The notes under the pieces: generated by a model
Told to the model about the DNA's origin: nothing
The model's input: the letters and a program-made list of their open reading frames with translations, nothing else
Database searches by the model: none
In this document: in pieces, positions 3,900-11,873 of the stretch
Layout of the letters: every line of letters begins with the position of its first letter
How positions within the stretch are numbered: the stretch's first letter is position 1
Program-made: the position numbers and the translations under genes
Source: a virus
Lineage: Duplodnaviria > Heunggongvirae > Uroviricota > Caudoviricetes
Virus record (IMG/VR): IMGVR_UViG_2563366830_000016
Strand: one strand, 5' to 3'
Length of the DNA: 14,107 nucleotides

Positions 3900-4733
3900 A
3901 TGAACATCGAAAAAAGCAGATTAATTTCTGAGGCCGCCCCTCATCTGAACGCCTCTCTGGGCACAATTAACGGTAATGAATTTGCCGCAATTGTCCCGGT
4001 TATTCCAGGTCACATCGGTGGGCGTGAAACCAATATTGTTAGCGCAAAAGCGTTACACAAAGCGTTGGGCGTGGGAAAAGACTTCTCTACATGGATCACT
4101 GATCGCATCTCTGAATATGACTTCACCATTGGGCACGATTACTCAGTCCATAAAACAATTTCCCCAAATTTGGGGAAAAGCCCGAATGGCACGGCTTACA
4201 GCAAGATTAAGCAGTCTGGCAGACCCGGCAAAGACTATCTGTTAAGTGTCGGAATGGCGAAAGAGCTGGCAATGATCGAACGCAATGATCAGGGTCGCGC
4301 TATCCGTCGTTATTTCATCCAGTGCGAGGAAGAATTACAGCGTAGCGTGCCTGAAATCGCCGCCCGCTATCGTCGCCAGCTAAAAGCCCGTATCAGTGCC
4401 GCAAACAACTTTAAGCCAATGTGCGATGCGCTGAATATGGCCCGTGCCGAGCAGGGGAAAACGACGCAGCAACACCACTACACAAACGAGAGCAATATGA
4501 TTTCTCGTATCGTTCTTGGAGGGCTAACTGCTAAGCAGTGGGCGCGGATAAATGGCTATTCTGGCGAACCTCGCGACCATATGAACGCAGAACAGCTTGA
4601 GCACCTCTCATATCTCGAAAGCACCAATATCACGTTAATTGATATGGGCATGGAATATGAGCAGCGCAAAGGAGAACTCACCCGCCTGTCGCAACGCTGG
4701 CTCGCCAAGCGTCTGGAGGCGGTCCATGTTTAA
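3900..4733 (+). CDS. Putative phage regulatory/antirepressor-like protein (Rha/KilAC-like region)
   Basis: 277-aa ORF; GGAGA RBS 7 nt upstream; segment DYLLSVGMAKELAMIERNDQGRAIRRYFIQCEEEL resembles the conserved core of phage antirepressor (KilAC/Rha-type) domains. Family assignment is from memory of the motif, not a search. Confidence 0.55.
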   Translation: MNIEKSRLISEAAPHLNASLGTINGNEFAAIVPVIPGHIGGRETNIVSAKALHKALGVGKDFSTWITDRISEYDFTIGHDYSVHKTISPNLGKSPNGTAYSKIKQSGRPGKDYLLSVGMAKELAMIERNDQGRAIRRYFIQCEEELQRSVPEIAARYRRQLKARISAANNFKPMCDALNMARAEQGKTTQQHHYTNESNMISRIVLGGLTAKQWARINGYSGEPRDHMNAEQLEHLSYLESTNITLIDMGMEYEQRKGELTRLSQRWLAKRLEAVHV

Positions 4734-4908: not shown

Positions 4909-5339
4909 CCGTCCAGAAGAAGATATTTTCACTGACTGCTATGTCGCAAAAATCCAGCAATATGACAGCAAAGTCTGGCATTAATACAGCAGATACAAGC
5001 AAAGCTTATCATTTTATGGTGGTAGGAGCGGATGCCTTAACTATGTCAGAAATTACGGTCGATGGTGTTAGCGTTGAGAAGGTCAGCGGCTGCGCCAGAG
5101 AATTTCTGGTCGTAGATGACCTGTTCTGCTCGCGTAGTGACTCCACAAAAATCTTCGTCCGCACGCGCGACGTTAACGAAATGAGCGCGATGTACTGTGC
5201 CTCTGGTTCTTCCAATAGTGAGTTTTCGGAGTCCATAAAAAAGAGCTTGCCGTTATGCGGCAACACGGTTTATGGTTATAAGGCACCTCATAAAACGGGT
5301 GCCGGGATTAGGACCCCGCAGGCAATCGAGGCGATACAT

Positions 5340-5360
5340 GACGCGCCAGCGTCTTTTTTT
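5340..5360 (+). terminator. Candidate intrinsic terminator / attenuator: GACGC-gcca-GCGTC hairpin followed by T7
   Basis: Read directly: 5-bp GC-rich stem, 4-nt loop, then TTTTTTT at 5354-5360. Short stem, so moderate-to-low confidence. Lies inside the gap with no convincing gene (4909-5524). Confidence 0.35.
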
Positions 5361-5524
5361 GTATCGGCGCACACGCACACCTTATCAATGGTGGGCTGTA
5401 TGGGGCTGACTTCGGTCAGGCTGGTTTCCTTGATTGCCAGTAGTCCTAACCCTGTACAGTCCACCGCCAGCGAGCTTAGGACCTCCGGCGGTGGCTATAA
5501 ACCATCAATCAAGGAGGCTGCCAC

Positions 5525-7542: not shown

Positions 7543-7906
7543 AAATGTAGAAATGGCGCTTAGCTCCGCAATCGGAGAGCAGGTGGCAAAGATTGCTGGT
7601 GCTGTGTGGATTCATAACCTTCATTCTACTGGTGAAGAGAAAATGGCAATTCAGACGCCAGAGGGACGCACCATTACTACATCTCTGAAGCCGTCAGATG
7701 TTTGTGATCTGATTTGCGCATTCATGTACCCAGCAATGAGGACTGTCCACGGCGATAAGTGGAAACTTGCGACAACCGCTGAATTTGATATGTGGCTAAA
7801 CAATGATGGCATGCTGACTGATTACGGAATAACCAAGTGGCAGATGCTAGTTAGCCATATCGCAAACGCTATAGACCACGTGGGGTACGGTGATGCGAAA
7901 CATTGA
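7535..7906 (+). CDS. Hypothetical protein (123 aa)
   Basis: GGGAGG RBS 6 nt upstream; 3' end overlaps the primase start by 14-17 nt. Confidence 0.7.
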   Translation: MRENVEMALSSAIGEQVAKIAGAVWIHNLHSTGEEKMAIQTPEGRTITTSLKPSDVCDLICAFMYPAMRTVHGDKWKLATTAEFDMWLNNDGMLTDYGITKWQMLVSHIANAIDHVGYGDAKH

Positions 7907-10649
7907 TCTTATCCGTCAGGTTATCAGTGCGTCTGAAAACAACTGGCCTCATGTGCTGGGCTGCCTGAACATAAATGTCCCTGACTCTCCGCGCCGTCAT
8001 GCTCCCTGCCCTGCATGTGGGGGCAAAGATCGATTCCGGTTCGATGACAACGGGCGCGGTAGCTTCATCTGTAATCAGTGCGGCGCTGGTGATGGGCTGG
8101 ATTTAATTAAACGCGTAAATAACTGCGACACAACAGAGGCGGCGCTTCTTGCCGCTGATGTTCTGGGTATTGATTACCGGACAACGGAAACACCAGAAGC
8201 CACCAGCCAGAAACGGGAACAACTGGAAACCGAGCGCCAGCGACGCGAACAGGAGCGCCTGAAAAGGGCAGAGAAGGACGAACAACAAAGACGGGATACG
8301 TTTTCCCGTCAGTTTGATGACATGCGCAGAAAGGCTGTAAACGGCAAATCTGATTATCTGGTTGCGAAAGGGGTAGGTGATTTTACATTCCCCGTGTTGC
8401 CCGATGGATCTCTGTTGCTGGCGCTGGTGGATAAATCCGGCGCAGTAACAGCAGCACAGACTATTACCTCACATGGTGAAAAAAGACTCCTGACAGGTTC
8501 AGCAAAGCGAGGGGCATATCACGCCATAAACGCACCAGAAACAACACAGAGCATCTTAATCGCAGAAGGGCTGGCAACGGCATTATCTGCCCATTTAATG
8601 CGTCCAGAGGCGCTGACAGTGGCGGCGATTGATGCCGGGAACCTGTTATATGTCGCCCAGGTACTGCGGGATAAATTTCCTTCAGCACAAATCATCATTG
8701 CTGCGGATAACGACCACAGCGAAGGAAGACAAAACACGGGGAGAATAGCAGCAGAAAAAGCAGCTTTATCTGTTTCTGGATGGGTGGCATTACCCCCGAC
8801 AGATCACAAAGCAGACTGGAATGATTACCACCAAAAACACGGCATTAAATGCGCCACAGAAGCGTTCAATAAGTCAATGTACCAACCACAGGGTAATGGC
8901 GTGAAACAGGAGCCACAGACCATTGAGGGAAGCGATTTTAAGGTTATGGATACCGATCCACTGAAACCAAGAATAGAAAGCCGCGAGGATGGTATTTATT
9001 GGGTATCTCCGAGAGCTGACAGCCAGAGTGGAGAAATCATCAATAACGAAAGCTGGTTATGTTCTCCGTTAAGCGTTATCGGTACTGGCAGAGACGATAA
9101 AGACCAGTATCTCATTCTTCGCTGGCTGTCGTTTGGTTCTGAAACGCCGACAACCGCTGCCATTCCACTGGCTGATATTGGTGAACGTGAAGGATGGCGC
9201 ACACTTAAAGCTGGTGGGGTAAATGTCACGACCAAAAGCAGCCTCAGAGCAATACTGGCAGACTGGCTACAACGCAGTGGCTCTCGTGAATTGTGGCGTG
9301 TTGCTCATGCCACTGGCTGGCAATGCGGAGCGTACATCATGCCTGATGGGGAAATCATCGGAACACCTGAAAATCCTGTGCTGTTCAGCGGGAGAAGCTC
9401 AGCCGCAGCCGGATATACCGTCTCAGGGAGCGCGAAAAGCTGGCGTGATAACGTGGCGCGTCTGGCCTTTGGTAACTATTCAATGATGACCGGGATCGGC
9501 GCAGCACTGGCAGCGCCATTGATTGGGCTGGTGGGCGCTGACGGGTTCGGCATTCATTTCTATGAGCAGTCGAGCGCAGGTAAGACCACCACGGCAAACG
9601 TGGCGAGCAGCTTATACGGCAACCCTGATTTACTGCGGCTGACGTGGTACGGAACCGCGCTGGGGCTGGCAAATGAGGCCGCCGCCCACAATGACGGACT
9701 AATGCCGCTTGATGAAGTTGGTCAGGGCGCTGATCCTGTCAGCGTTTCACAGTCTGCCTATGCGTTATTTAACGGTGTAGGGAAACTGCAAGGCGCTAAA
9801 GATGGTGGAAACCGGGATCTAAAACGCTGGCGTACAGTGGCAATCAGCACCGGAGAAATGGATTTAGAAACATTTATCGCTACTTCCGGGCGAAAAACCA
9901 AAGCCGGGCAACTGGTGCGACTGCTGAATATTCCGTTGAGTAAAGCAGTACGCTTTCACGATTACCAGAACGGAAAACAGCACGCAGACGCACTGAAAGA
10001 CGCTTACCAGCATCACCACGGCGCGTCCGGGCGTGAGTGGATTAAATGGCTGGCAGACCACCAGCAACAGGCTATTAAAACCGTTCGTGACTGCGAAAGC
10101 AGATGGAGAAGCCTGATCCCATCCGATTATGGTGAGCAGGTTCACCGTGTAGCCGCGCGATTTGCCATTCTGGAGGCCGCATTGTTGTTAGGCGAGGTTG
10201 TAACAGGCTGGGATGCTCAGACATGCCGTGATGCGATACAGCACAGCTATAACGCATGGTTGCGCGAGTTCGGCACAGGTAACAAAGAGCATCAGCAGAT
10301 TATTGAACAAACGGAGGCATTTCTTAATGCCTATGGGCTTAGCCGTTTTGCACCATTTCCATACAGCCCGGCAGATTTGCCCATCAAAGATTTAGCCGGA
10401 TACCGTCAGCGTGGAGAACATGACGAAAGCCCAATGATTTTCTACACATTCCCGGCCACATTTGAAAAGGAGATCGCATGTGGTTTCAACGCAAAACAGT
10501 TTGCTGAAGTGTTGAAAAAAGCCGGGATGCTAACCCCACCAAACAGCGGTCGTGGATACCAAAGAAAATCACCACGTATTCAGGGACGACAAATAAACGT
10601 TTATGTACTCAATTACCAGCCAGGAGATTATAACTCATCTGAAGAATGA
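7890..10649 (+). CDS. Satellite/phage-type DNA primase-helicase (primase Zn-ribbon + TOPRIM + P-loop NTPase, P4 alpha-like)
   Basis: 919-aa ORF. N-terminal zinc-ribbon CPACGG...FICNQCG typical of primase-helicase Zn-binding domains; charged linker (EQLETERQRREQERLKRAEKDEQQRR); TOPRIM-like acidic motif (IAADNDHSEGRQ); Walker A (SSAGKTTT). Track start is GTG 7890; ATG at 7893 is the alternative. Confidence 0.9.
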   Translation: MMRNIDLIRQVISASENNWPHVLGCLNINVPDSPRRHAPCPACGGKDRFRFDDNGRGSFICNQCGAGDGLDLIKRVNNCDTTEAALLAADVLGIDYRTTETPEATSQKREQLETERQRREQERLKRAEKDEQQRRDTFSRQFDDMRRKAVNGKSDYLVAKGVGDFTFPVLPDGSLLLALVDKSGAVTAAQTITSHGEKRLLTGSAKRGAYHAINAPETTQSILIAEGLATALSAHLMRPEALTVAAIDAGNLLYVAQVLRDKFPSAQIIIAADNDHSEGRQNTGRIAAEKAALSVSGWVALPPTDHKADWNDYHQKHGIKCATEAFNKSMYQPQGNGVKQEPQTIEGSDFKVMDTDPLKPRIESREDGIYWVSPRADSQSGEIINNESWLCSPLSVIGTGRDDKDQYLILRWLSFGSETPTTAAIPLADIGEREGWRTLKAGGVNVTTKSSLRAILADWLQRSGSRELWRVAHATGWQCGAYIMPDGEIIGTPENPVLFSGRSSAAAGYTVSGSAKSWRDNVARLAFGNYSMMTGIGAALAAPLIGLVGADGFGIHFYEQSSAGKTTTANVASSLYGNPDLLRLTWYGTALGLANEAAAHNDGLMPLDEVGQGADPVSVSQSAYALFNGVGKLQGAKDGGNRDLKRWRTVAISTGEMDLETFIATSGRKTKAGQLVRLLNIPLSKAVRFHDYQNGKQHADALKDAYQHHHGASGREWIKWLADHQQQAIKTVRDCESRWRSLIPSDYGEQVHRVAARFAILEAALLLGEVVTGWDAQTCRDAIQHSYNAWLREFGTGNKEHQQIIEQTEAFLNAYGLSRFAPFPYSPADLPIKDLAGYRQRGEHDESPMIFYTFPATFEKEIACGFNAKQFAEVLKKAGMLTPPNSGRGYQRKSPRIQGRQINVYVLNYQPGDYNSSEE

Positions 10650-10672
10650 GCTTCTTCATGTGCGTAGAAAAG

Positions 10673-10787
10673 GTGTTGGTTCAGTTGGTTTAGTTGGTTC
10701 AATTTGTAAAGAGTATTGTTTTATAAGGATTTTATTCTTTTTATTGAACCAACACTGAACCAACAACACGGTATTTTGAACCAACAC
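10673..10787. repeat. Iteron-type origin candidate: 3 direct repeats GTTGGTT(C/T)A (10673-10701), AT-rich spacer, 3 inverted copies TGAACCAAC(A)AC (10745-10787)
   Basis: Read directly. Clustered 9-11 bp repeats in opposing orientation around an AT-rich core, immediately downstream of the primase-helicase gene, is the classic arrangement of a satellite/phage replication origin. Confidence 0.65.
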
Positions 10788-10893
10788 AATGTGACTGAAT
10801 TGATGCGCACAACACCTGGCTGGCATCAGAGAGTGTTTTACGAGACTTTCGTAAAATCCTGTGTACAAGGGCGTGACGTTTTTGAAAGTGAGC

Positions 10894-10912
10894 ACTACGA
10901 AATTTTCGTAGT
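10894..10912. promoter_or_regulatory. 19-bp palindrome ACTACGAAA-T-TTTCGTAGT (operator-like), with an additional TTTCGTA half-site about 45 bp upstream
   Basis: Read directly; 9-bp arms, perfect. Related half-site within ACTTTCGTAAAAT at 10845-10857. Function inferred. Confidence 0.35.
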
Positions 10913-11105
10913 TCAGAAAACAGCCTCTGAGAAGTTGTTATGCCTGTTCAGCAAACCATCCGCATAGCTGATCGCGAATCAAATTACCAATGGAGCCAGA
11001 AGCAAGGGCAGAACTGAAAAGCGCCTGCCGTGAAGAGTAATGCGACACCATAAATATAGTTTTTAGAGTCCATAAAAAACCTGTCAAAACCTGACACACA
11101 GAACG

Positions 11106-11138
11106 ATGCCACCAGCTACTGAGCGGTGGCATTTTTTT
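11106..11138 (+). terminator. Rho-independent terminator (8-bp stem ATGCCACC/GGTGGCAT, 11-nt loop, T7 tract)
   Basis: Read directly: perfect 8-bp GC-rich stem followed by TTTTTTT at 11132-11138. Confidence 0.65.
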
Positions 11139-11171
11139 GTGCTATTTGTTTCATATTTTGCAATTACGATG

Positions 11172-11200
11172 ATGAATATTGCGATTTGTGAAACTATAAT
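11172..11200 (+). promoter_or_regulatory. Candidate sigma70 promoter: consensus -10 TATAAT (11195-11200) with weak -35 ATGAAT at 17-bp spacing
   Basis: Perfect TATAAT hexamer 34 nt upstream of the ATG at 11234 and just downstream of the terminator; the -35 is weak, so low confidence. Confidence 0.35.
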
Positions 11201-11233
11201 AACTGTTGTTTTATACAGTTCTAAGGGGGCGTT

Positions 11234-11395
11234 ATGGCTATTTCAGTAAAGCCGGTATTGATAAGTGAGAAGCAAATGGAAGCGATAAAGAAAATTCAGG
11301 AAGAGCAGCGTAAAAAATCAGGAATTGGAGTAGCGCCAACTCTGCATGAAATTGCACGAGGGTTAATAGATAAGGCGCTGGCAGGCTGTATGTGA
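11234..11395 (+). CDS. Small ORF (53 aa), ribbon-helix-helix-like predicted fold; putative DNA-binding regulator or antitoxin-like protein
   Basis: Below the 60-aa track cutoff; found by reading. AAGGGGG RBS 4-5 nt upstream. MAISVKPVLISEKQMEAIKKIQEEQRKKSGIGVAPTLHEIARGLIDKALAGCM shows a beta-strand/helix/helix pattern typical of Arc/MetJ/CopG-type proteins. Fold assignment is inference. Confidence 0.45.
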   Translation: MAISVKPVLISEKQMEAIKKIQEEQRKKSGIGVAPTLHEIARGLIDKALAGCM

Positions 11396-11411
11396 AAATG
11401 GATGGCATCGC

Positions 11412-11873
11412 ATGGAACTAAAATTTATTGATAACCCTGTGCGATTACAGGCCTTTCTTAACGAGCCAGGCAATACCGAAAATATTGTTGAGCCGGGGCA
11501 CACGTACTACATCAAGCCTGATGCGGTATATCTCGGCATCTACGAAGGATTAGTGCTGGCTGGCGTTCATGAAGTGCGTAACTTCTGGCATAGCGTTGTT
11601 GAATGCCATGCGGTGTACGACCCCGGATTCCGTGGTGAATATGCACTGCAAGGACATCGATTATTCTGCAAATGGCTTCTCGAAAACTCACCATTCCTTA
11701 ACAGCATCACTATGGTTCCTGACACCACGAAATACGGACGGGCAATTATCCGTTTGCTTGGCGCTACCCGTGTTGGTCACCTTGATGATGCTTATATCAG
11801 ATGTGGTAAACCCGTCGGCGTAACGCTTTATCAGTTAACTCGGCAACAATATAAGGAATTCAGCGAATGTTAA
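11412..11873 (+). CDS. Hypothetical protein (153 aa), possibly P22 gp14-like; co-transcribed with downstream ejection-protein-like genes
   Basis: 153-aa ORF; its stop overlaps the next gene's start (ATGTTAA). Position and size match the gene preceding gp7 in P22-like clusters; the homology is recalled, not verified. Confidence 0.6.
   Translation: MELKFIDNPVRLQAFLNEPGNTENIVEPGHTYYIKPDAVYLGIYEGLVLAGVHEVRNFWHSVVECHAVYDPGFRGEYALQGHRLFCKWLLENSPFLNSITMVPDTTKYGRAIIRLLGATRVGHLDDAYIRCGKPVGVTLYQLTRQQYKEFSEC

Follow-up and report, generated by a model that had tools for sequence, protein, structure and literature searches.

A seam between the replication module and a candidate LexA- and ribbon-helix-helix-controlled injection-protein operon in thrW islands of Escherichia coli

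We analyzed positions 10801–11233 of a 14,107-nucleotide viral sequence (IMG/VR record IMGVR_UViG_2563366830_000016, Caudoviricetes; this whole stretch is called the window below), which lie between a primase gene and genes for P22-like injection proteins. This interval is probably the seam between the replication module and the injection-protein operon of an integrative, satellite-like thrW island, and would carry a terminator followed by a promoter gated by LexA and a ribbon-helix-helix protein. Direct observations cover where the motifs lie, how they are conserved across genera, where the modules break, the fold predicted for the protein, the folding energy of the terminator, and the change of iterons with primase family. 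From the sequence, we infer promoter activity, the start site, LexA binding, binding of the ribbon-helix-helix protein to two operator-like dyads (O1 and O2), and the direction of regulation.

The window was 99.6% identical to the thrW (tRNA-Thr) island of E. coli ABU 83972, and the junction was found in 539 of 5,426 complete E. coli genomes (approximately 10%). The gene order is proA, tRNA-Thr, integrase, AlpA-like helix-turn-helix protein, AntA/B anti-repressor, and the isrK and C4 RNAs, followed by the TOPRIM-DUF927 primase (7890–10649), the junction, the open reading frame (ORF) of a 53-amino-acid protein, gp14 (DUF2824), gp7, and gp20, with gp16 just past the window end. The primase and P22 gp14, gp7, and gp20 were identified in the window by Pfam. 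Only three intergenic pieces were kept among the islands of E. coli, Leclercia, Citrobacter, Serratia, Klebsiella, Pectobacterium, and Pantoea: an iteron origin, a 48-bp block (11032–11079), and a cassette (11125–11449) that contains the predicted promoter.

Positions 11139–11233 were conserved across six genera and hold O1, O2, a TATAAT hexamer, a site of LexA-box form, and a ribosome-binding site, followed by the 53-amino-acid gene (Table 1). Neither the two dyads (TTKCA-N5-TGMAA), nor the LexA-box-form site, nor the iteron origin had been listed in the initial annotation of the window, which noted the TATAAT. The half-sites of O1 were invariant in E. coli, Leclercia, Pectobacterium, and Pantoea (alignment A1), and the same dyad form was found in Serratia, Klebsiella, and Citrobacter. 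Overall, the half-sites of both O1 and O2 and the −10 varied little or not at all. The −10 read TAAAAT or TAAATT in some loci, whereas those of E. coli, Leclercia, Citrobacter, and Serratia and one locus of Klebsiella had TATAAT. TATAAT occurs four times in the window, and the copy at the junction gains weight because its position is conserved in other genera. ATGAT(C/T) was present at the −35 position in other genera, and a purine-rich GGAGG/GGGGG run was conserved at the Shine-Dalgarno position. The four TTKCA-type half-sites of O1 and O2 are spaced by 10, 19, and 10 bp; the 10-bp distance within each dyad is compatible with a dimer of dimers per dyad. Since O2 fills the −35/−10 spacer, a protein bound there should occlude RNA polymerase and repress transcription.

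The LexA consensus is TACTG(TA)5CAGTA (PMC6590174), and AACTGTTGTTTTATACAGTT, which has the form of a LexA box, matched it at 14 of 20 positions. It was the only CTGT-N8-ACAG sequence in the 14-kb window, where 0.18 were expected. LexA-binding sites of E. coli K-12 form a class of low heterology index (HI) that peaks near 7 (PMC12527982). The HI of AACTGTTGTTTTATACAGTT was 4.5 on a matrix rebuilt from about 20 E. coli LexA boxes, on which absolute values are approximate; this was the best value in the window, lower than the best site of all 300 shuffles (best 5.2, median 12.3), and within the range of the 20 matrix boxes (0.3–9.6). At the equivalent position, the HI was 4.0 in Serratia, 6.5 in Pantoea, and 8.1–9.6 in Citrobacter and Leclercia, and in every locus of E. 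coli, Serratia, and Pantoea no site scored better than the LexA-form one. CTGT and ACAG were kept while the 8-bp spacer differed in four lineages. We infer that AACTGTTGTTTTATACAGTT is a LexA site controlling the operon.

The model of the 53-amino-acid protein showed a β-α-α (ribbon-helix-helix) fold with an N-terminal strand. This strand, KPVL(I/L)(S/T), was conserved together with the operators. The protein had no sequence match in PHROG or PDB, belonged to no curated ribbon-helix-helix family, and was absent from 50,697 phage genomes. Judging from the model, it is probably a ribbon-helix-helix protein and a candidate autorepressor. O1 and O2 are most likely bound by this protein of their own operon, as a dimer of dimers.

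Upstream of the promoter, the stem GAUGCCACC.../...GGUGGCAU forms a GC-rich hairpin immediately ahead of U7. Its folding energy was −25.1 kcal/mol (z = −6.8), and it was flagged by a terminator scan. The sole variant within the E. coli clade lay in the loop. Unrelated GC hairpins with a T-run occupied the same position in six relatives from Leclercia, Citrobacter, and Pantoea (L010, L022–L024, L011, and L013; L numbers denote related loci), and no such hairpin was found where the upstream gene lies on the opposite strand (L012, L017, and L020). The hairpins at this position in other lineages gave indirect support to the prediction that the terminator stops transcripts of the replication module and shields the promoter behind it. 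The insulated, separately regulated unit of the initial annotation was retained to this extent, as a downstream operon with its own predicted promoter behind a terminator; its regulators had been misidentified, as described below.

Table 1 Features of the junction and its flanks. Positions are those of the window; a dot marks features without strand.
Feature	Position	Strand	Description
Iteron origin	10673–10790	.	Just outside the studied interval; forms the left module
Left recombination seam, replication module/accessory slot	10829–10844	.	Homology breaks
Hairpin/dyad	10836–10856	.	TTTTACGA-GACTT-TCGTAAAA, 8-bp arms
Frameshifted ant (anti-repressor) remnant, P22-like phage	10872–10981	+	Corresponds to amino acids 49–88 of phiKp_30 gp080
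19-bp perfect palindrome	10894–10912	.	ACTACGAAA-T-TTTCGTAGT; came with the ant fragment; codes H-Y-E-I-F-V-V
Remnant of the 3' end of a 152-amino-acid ORF	10934–11052	+	ORF intact in sister island L004
Conserved 48-bp block	11032–11079	+	GAAGAGTAATGCGACACCATAA then AGTTTTTAGAGTCCATAAAAAA
TGTCA-N5-TGACA dyad	11082–11096	.	TGTCA-aaacc-TGACA; alternatively 10-bp direct repeat AAAACCTGWC x2
Intrinsic terminator (predicted)	11105–11138	+	Hairpin and T7 run; closes the primase/accessory unit
Operator-like dyad O1	11150–11164	.	TTTCATATTTTGCAA; TTKCA-N5-TGMAA; about −57 to −43
Weak −35	11172–11177	+	ATGAAT, 3/6; 17 bp from the −10; read from sequence
Operator-like dyad O2	11179–11193	.	TTGCGATTTGTGAAA; fills the −35/−10 spacer, abuts the −10
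−10	11195–11200	+	TATAAT; read from sequence
LexA (SOS) box-form site	11201–11220	.	AACTGTTGTTTTATACAGTT; between the −10 and the ribosome-binding site, over the predicted start
Shine-Dalgarno sequence	11223–11229	+	AAGGGGG, then ATG
53-amino-acid ribbon-helix-helix protein gene (predicted fold)	11234–11395	+	First gene of the operon; candidate O1/O2 ligand

The homology of relatives to the window broke at 10829–10844, 10984–11004, and 11382, with three primase families on the left and several cargos on the right. This bore out the suggestion of the initial annotation that two modules meet here: primases are exchanged on one side and cargo on the other. The alignment of related islands that it had proposed as a check located the breakpoints, and it showed the palindromes to be missing from L004, L006, and the non-E. 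coli relatives. At the left seam, homology with L005 and L007 began at 10829–10832 and that with L004 stopped at 10843, and classes of matches started at query positions 190–196.

Between the seams lies a variable slot, which elsewhere contains intact SSB, ProQ, and a 329-amino-acid gene; a 152-amino-acid gene; 76- and 245-amino-acid genes; or a 93-amino-acid fusion. In the window, it holds decayed gene fragments and no intact gene, in agreement with the earlier statement that 10801–11233 contains no convincing ORF. One fragment matched, by blastn, a site within a 243-amino-acid coding sequence of the Klebsiella Lederbergvirus phiKp_30, and the tblastn match was split over two frames (+3, then +2); gp080 of this phage belongs to phrog_1726, 'anti-repressor' (E = 3e-100). 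The other fragment showed 41% identity over 39 amino acids by blastx to the 152-amino-acid ORF and is broken by a TGA at 11016–11018, which is TGG in L005 and L009. A minus-strand hydrophobic ORF of 29 amino acids (11073..10984) seemed to be kept in Leclercia with an in-frame indel; it was rejected, as its frame and length were lost in L004, L022, and L023.

In the left flank, the iteron region starts 24 bp past the primase stop and consists of three copies of GTTGGTTCA (10675–10703), followed by an AT-rich core of about 40 bp and three copies of the inverted TGAACCAAC (10744–10787), that is, three plus three inverted 9-mers. Identical iterons with identical spacing were found behind every DUF927 primase in five genera. 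Sister E. coli islands with DUF5906 or P4-family primases carried entirely different iterons, each family having its own sequence. In the tested origin of Gram-negative phage-inducible chromosomal islands (PICIs), an AT-rich region directly 3' of the rep gene is flanked by two sets of iterons (PMC6092414). The same arrangement was found here, immediately 3' of the initiator gene and with iterons specific to the initiator family, and 10673–10790 is the predicted replication origin. The PICI-like layout and the position of the iterons right after the primase place the end of the replication module near 10790–10830.

All of the motifs listed in the initial annotation (the 19-bp palindrome, a related dyad, the TGTCA dyad, the terminator, and the TATAAT) were present where it had placed them. 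It had listed the palindrome and a related half-site among the elements of a regulatory junction. A role for them as operators of the junction was not supported, as the palindrome lies inside the frameshifted ant remnant and is absent from L004, L006, and all non-E. coli islands, though sister islands keep both flanks. The palindrome is also about 300 bp upstream of the promoter, ahead of the terminator. The 'related half-site' was the dyad TACGAGACTTTCGTA (10839–10853), contained in the hairpin 10836–10856 (−7.6 kcal/mol), whose 19-nt core occurred in only seven viral contigs, each from an island of this type. Perfect palindromes with arms of at least 8 bp gave six overlapping hits in the window against a shuffle mean of 1.3; three are independent, and two of these lie in the interval. 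On this comparison of sequences, the palindrome is hitch-hiking phage debris here and is not part of the logic of the junction.

The exact 19-mer was found in 112 IMG/VR contigs, against fewer than one expected by chance (an estimate). These copies lay within or directly beside Ant-family genes, some of them belonging to other families with unrelated flanks. Sixty distinct ant homologues, gathered by protein similarity, were all palindromic at the site and formed three haplotypes: CAC TAC GAA ATT TTC GTA GTT, CAC TAC ACA AAA AGT GTA GTG, and ACC TAC ACA AAA AGT GTA GGT. Among them the peptide varied (H/T, E/T, I/K, F/S, and V/G) while base pairing was kept: 96% of the cells were paired (23–49% in slid controls), and four of the eight pairs changed on both sides. 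None of 500 shuffles reached the covariation score, which reflects few independent evolutionary events. In phage anti-repressor loci, selection appears to act on the palindrome as a structural element, which compensatory changes would keep even at amino-acid cost. It may act as an RNA hairpin (7–8-bp stem, 5-nt loop) or as a DNA site that binds a dimer. We also considered a pure coding accident, in which the codons for YExFV are self-complementary; this was rejected because variant alleles alter the peptide yet stay palindromic, and because the 19-mer also occurs with unrelated flanks. A PurR-like or other known E. coli operator was rejected, as the spacing did not fit. A literature search found no paper containing the 19-mer sequence.

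Palindromes were also observed at other places. In the ABU 83972 island (L001), two tandem near-copies, CTGCGAAAATTTCGTAG and TTACGAAAATTTCGTAG, lie 21 bp apart at about 21050–21095, approximately 9 kb past the junction; the DNA there is non-coding and is bordered by a PerC-family gene and a truncated integrase. In the window, a third long perfect palindrome, TTTCCCCAAATTTGGGGAAA (4159–4180), is inside the island's own AntA/AntB anti-repressor gene and represents a second case of a long palindrome in anti-repressor coding sequence. In three P22-like prophages of IMG/VR (L037, L048, and L113), a truncated ant remnant begins almost exactly at the palindrome and is flanked by the tailspike gene (MTDITANV...) and by an intact Ant gene with its terminator. 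Joints of recombination in the immI region may therefore be marked by the palindrome.

The 48-bp block was kept in Leclercia, Citrobacter, and Serratia. Each island has two to three copies of its second half, AGTTTTTAGAGTCCATAAAAA, always on the + (transcribed) strand, and the copy at 5220–5241 of the window is upstream of isrK. As a motif of about 24 bp (RAGTTTTnnnGAGTCCATAAAAA), it occurs in the window at 5220–5241 and 11056–11079, with a partial copy at 4145, and elsewhere in L014 (670, 4743, and 10065), L010 (3792/3827), and L022 (4794/4828). One copy lies directly against the −35 of the predicted isrK promoter, and another, duplicated in Citrobacter and Leclercia, is 26 nt ahead of the junction terminator. 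A nut-like reading, in which GAGTCCATAAAAA is followed by a dyad as motif and hairpin, was rejected because the downstream hairpin was inconsistent among loci. A promoter downstream of the motif was likewise rejected, as no −10 was found at 11080–11125.

The TGTCA dyad, to which the initial annotation had given a regulatory role, did not stand out from background. Dyads of this format (5-bp arms, 5-nt spacer) are common, numbering 26 in the window and about 14 in shuffles, and this one was confined to the E. coli clade and forms a weak hairpin (−3.8 kcal/mol). The two C-to-T changes in L006 affect the same position within the direct repeat. Late promoters of P2 and P4, which are activated by Ogr/Delta, carry a TGT-N12-ACA dyad centred near −55. 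No TGT-N12-ACA was found upstream of the −10; the TGTCA dyad is a TGT-N9-ACA at about −118, upstream of the terminator, and this candidate was rejected.

Two RNAs of P4/P1-type immunity were found elsewhere in the island, the window of which has no sid, delta, or psu: isrK (5283–5359, 63 bits) and the C4 antisense RNA (5384–5471, 80 bits), arranged in tandem, fall within an ORF annotated as 'ash family'. A likely target of C4 is a 10-nt complementarity at 5506. Control of the junction by this immunity RNA was rejected, as C4 and isrK had no complementary stretch in 10650–11300. The Rfam 15 covariance models gave, for 10640–11260, only spurious microRNA-type matches to the iteron inverted repeat, far below gathering scores.

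The cargo behind the 53-amino-acid gene was also compared. The last three to eight residues of the protein vary with cargo type (AGCM, ASLASEGA, and AYTLTGRG; 11382–11395 in the window, and L004–L008), which places the right-hand module breakpoint inside the 3' end of its gene. The cassette heads genes for virion-internal or DNA-injection proteins whose type changes with lineage (the window, L010–L013, L014–L016, L017, L020, and L022–L024). The types are P22 gp14/gp7/gp20/gp16; gp20 and gp16 only; a T7 gp14-like internal virion protein with an 888-amino-acid SLT transglycosylase; a 1188-amino-acid tape-measure protein; 'injection transglycosylase' proteins of 605–844 amino acids; and a baseplate-hub-like protein. 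Klebsiella cassettes add TerS-like genes, and one E. coli variant instead has a 223-amino-acid protein of no known identity and PerC.

Several observations weigh against a promoter gated by LexA and the ribbon-helix-helix protein. A consensus promoter scan reported no sigma-70 site here, because the −35 matches at 3/6 positions, and the HI matrix is a reconstruction that differs from the published matrix. In Leclercia sp. L011 and Pectobacterium the box is degenerate, and in Klebsiella it is 1 bp short; this decay implies that LexA control is not universal to the cassette and that the homologous sequence could serve another protein. The 53-amino-acid protein had no Pfam family at E ≤ 0.01 and no significant Foldseek match, its fold being that of a predicted monomer, and adjacency and co-conservation are what link it to O1 and O2. 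The conserved 11032–11079 block has no place in the explanation. One alternative is that a protein of the island or the helper uses CTGT-N8-ACAG as a third operator, and that the operon is switched on by a helper phage (e.g., through AlpA or an anti-repressor) and not by SOS directly. The L011, L012, and Klebsiella loci, which keep a homologous TTGTAT... that is no longer LexA-like, favor such a switch, and Gram-negative PICIs are described as helper-induced (PMC6092414). However, retention of CTGT and ACAG around a varying spacer in four lineages, an HI within the range of genuine boxes, and a position over the start site, typical of LexA repression, argue against it. We consider the helper switch unlikely and prefer LexA as the ligand of AACTGTTGTTTTATACAGTT.

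The remaining alternatives assign other roles to the sequences upstream of the promoter. In the model drawn from the initial annotation, the ribbon-helix-helix protein or AlpA would bind the 19-bp palindrome, the related dyad ahead of it, and TGTCA-N5-TGACA as operators and thereby regulate the origin or the downstream unit. This model has in its favor that the two TACGA...TCGTA dyads, separated by 57 bp, belong to a rare class of long palindromes, that the 19-mer appears to be under selection in phages, and that ABU 83972 has the two further tandem copies downstream. Yet the dyads lie 285–340 bp upstream of the promoter, ahead of a strong terminator and within a frameshifted gene fragment; L004 and L006 lack them while having the same origin or the same cassette, none occurs in non-E. 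coli relatives, and the ribbon-helix-helix protein accompanies O1/O2 everywhere and not the palindrome. Together with the chance frequency of the TGTCA dyad, this makes the model very doubtful. The two hairpins could instead belong to the replication apparatus, e.g., as single-strand initiation or primase-loading signals, being 50–120 bp from the iterons and stable, with 7–8-bp stems and 5-nt loops; DUF927 islands with identical iterons lack them, however (L004, L011, L014, L017, and L022), and the home of the 19-mer is phage ant genes and not origins, so that we find this hardly credible. A small RNA might start near the 11032–11079 block and end at the terminator at 11138, in parallel to the isrK and C4 RNAs of the island. 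The interval has no ORF, the conserved block is directly upstream of a strong terminator, and the same 24-bp motif is just upstream of the predicted isrK promoter. Against this, no Rfam match was obtained even at E = 10, no −10/−35 pair was found in 11030–11105, the terminator stem and 11080–11124 were not conserved across genera, and C4 and isrK had no complementarity to the region; we regard such an RNA as improbable. The preferred reading is still that of a module seam followed by a doubly controlled promoter.

Here, we propose the following model of the junction. The primase gene ends at 10649, and the putative iteron origin ends near 10790. The next 220 bp or so (roughly 10830–11052) would be leftovers of the variable accessory-gene slot, including the frameshifted piece of a P22-like ant, and the conserved 48-bp block, which appears to overlap their end, comes next. 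The terminator would then halt transcription from the replication module. A predicted sigma-70 promoter with a perfect −10 and a weak −35 would drive the ribbon-helix-helix gene and then gp14, gp7, gp20, and gp16. With the LexA box over the start site, the operon would be off in undamaged cells and freed by SOS. Because SOS is the same signal that induces helper prophages, firing would be timed with the helper. The ribbon-helix-helix protein, as a dimer of dimers on O1 and O2, which lie on either side of the −35, would trim its own promoter, giving negative feedback.

More generally, we tentatively suggest, at less than even confidence, that satellite-like enterobacterial islands share a cassette of SOS (LexA) control and a ribbon-helix-helix autorepressor for making injection proteins that suit the morphotype of the helper (P22 E-proteins, T7 internal core proteins, tape-measure or hub proteins, and sometimes TerS), and that, independently, the palindrome is a hairpin or dyad element under selection, not described before, that accompanies phage ant genes. 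Such a cassette would be a Gram-negative counterpart of operon I of the Staphylococcus aureus pathogenicity islands (SaPIs), with a class of cargo that had not yet been linked to satellites. If the promoter is indeed gated by LexA and the small ribbon-helix-helix protein, the widespread thrW islands, which carry vat in extraintestinal pathogenic E. coli, would time injection-protein synthesis to SOS. This would offer a testable handle on two questions: whether P22-like and other phages have active satellites in these 'cryptic' islands, and for what reason a satellite carries ejection proteins of its own. Control by LexA and a ribbon-helix-helix protein is plausible and was not described for these islands in the literature searched, which contained no relevant report of LexA-controlled Gram-negative satellites or of satellites with ejection proteins; the seam otherwise looks like an ordinary terminator and promoter. 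The regulatory map is also corrected, in that the conspicuous palindromes are read as hitch-hiking phage debris in the island. The injection-protein cargo and the ant-associated palindrome may outrank the seam itself in interest.

Promoters under LexA and a second repressor are known from colicin operons, PrstA of CTXphi (LexA and RstR), and dinJ-yafQ (a LexA box and a ribbon-helix-helix autorepressor). The predicted promoter would share with them an SOS box over the promoter core, an element-specific DNA-binding protein, and a ribbon-helix-helix first gene that is probably autoregulatory. It differs in that the downstream genes encode virion injection proteins and not toxins or colicins, and the operators are unrelated. 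In P22, the immI region (mnt-arc-ant) lies beside genes 16 and 9. The island resembles this region in its debris, which derives from a gene in the ant locus of a P22-like phage; in its 53-amino-acid protein, which has the size and predicted fold class of Arc and lies beside the ant debris; and in its cargo, 14-7-20-16, the genes that precede immI in P22. In contrast, no sequence similarity of the protein to Arc or Mnt could be detected, sequenced phages lack the protein, the operators differ, and the order is permuted in the island (ant remnant, ribbon-helix-helix gene, 14-7-20-16).

PICIs such as EcCICFT073 (PMC6092414) have in common with the island two iteron sets around an AT-rich region 3' of the primase or rep gene and initiator-family-specific iterons. 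Unlike them, the island has P4-type immunity RNAs (C4 and isrK) and a DUF927 primase, and the window is without PICI capsid and Rpp genes; unlike P4, the window is without sid, delta, and psu genes. As the closest analogue, the cassette resembles SaPI operon I, which is outlined in the source citing the original study as a LexA-controlled packaging and morphogenesis operon (Ubeda et al. 2007, cited in PMC6092414). Both are satellite operons for virion-related functions located downstream of a replication module and origin, and both would have their own promoter with a LexA box that fires with the SOS induction of the helper, as is predicted for the island. The island differs in that its host is Gram-negative and its proteins are unrelated; its cargo consists of injection proteins (P22 gp14/7/20/16, T7 core, or tape measure), with TerS only in some relatives; and it adds two dyad operators and a ribbon-helix-helix gene to the predicted LexA control.

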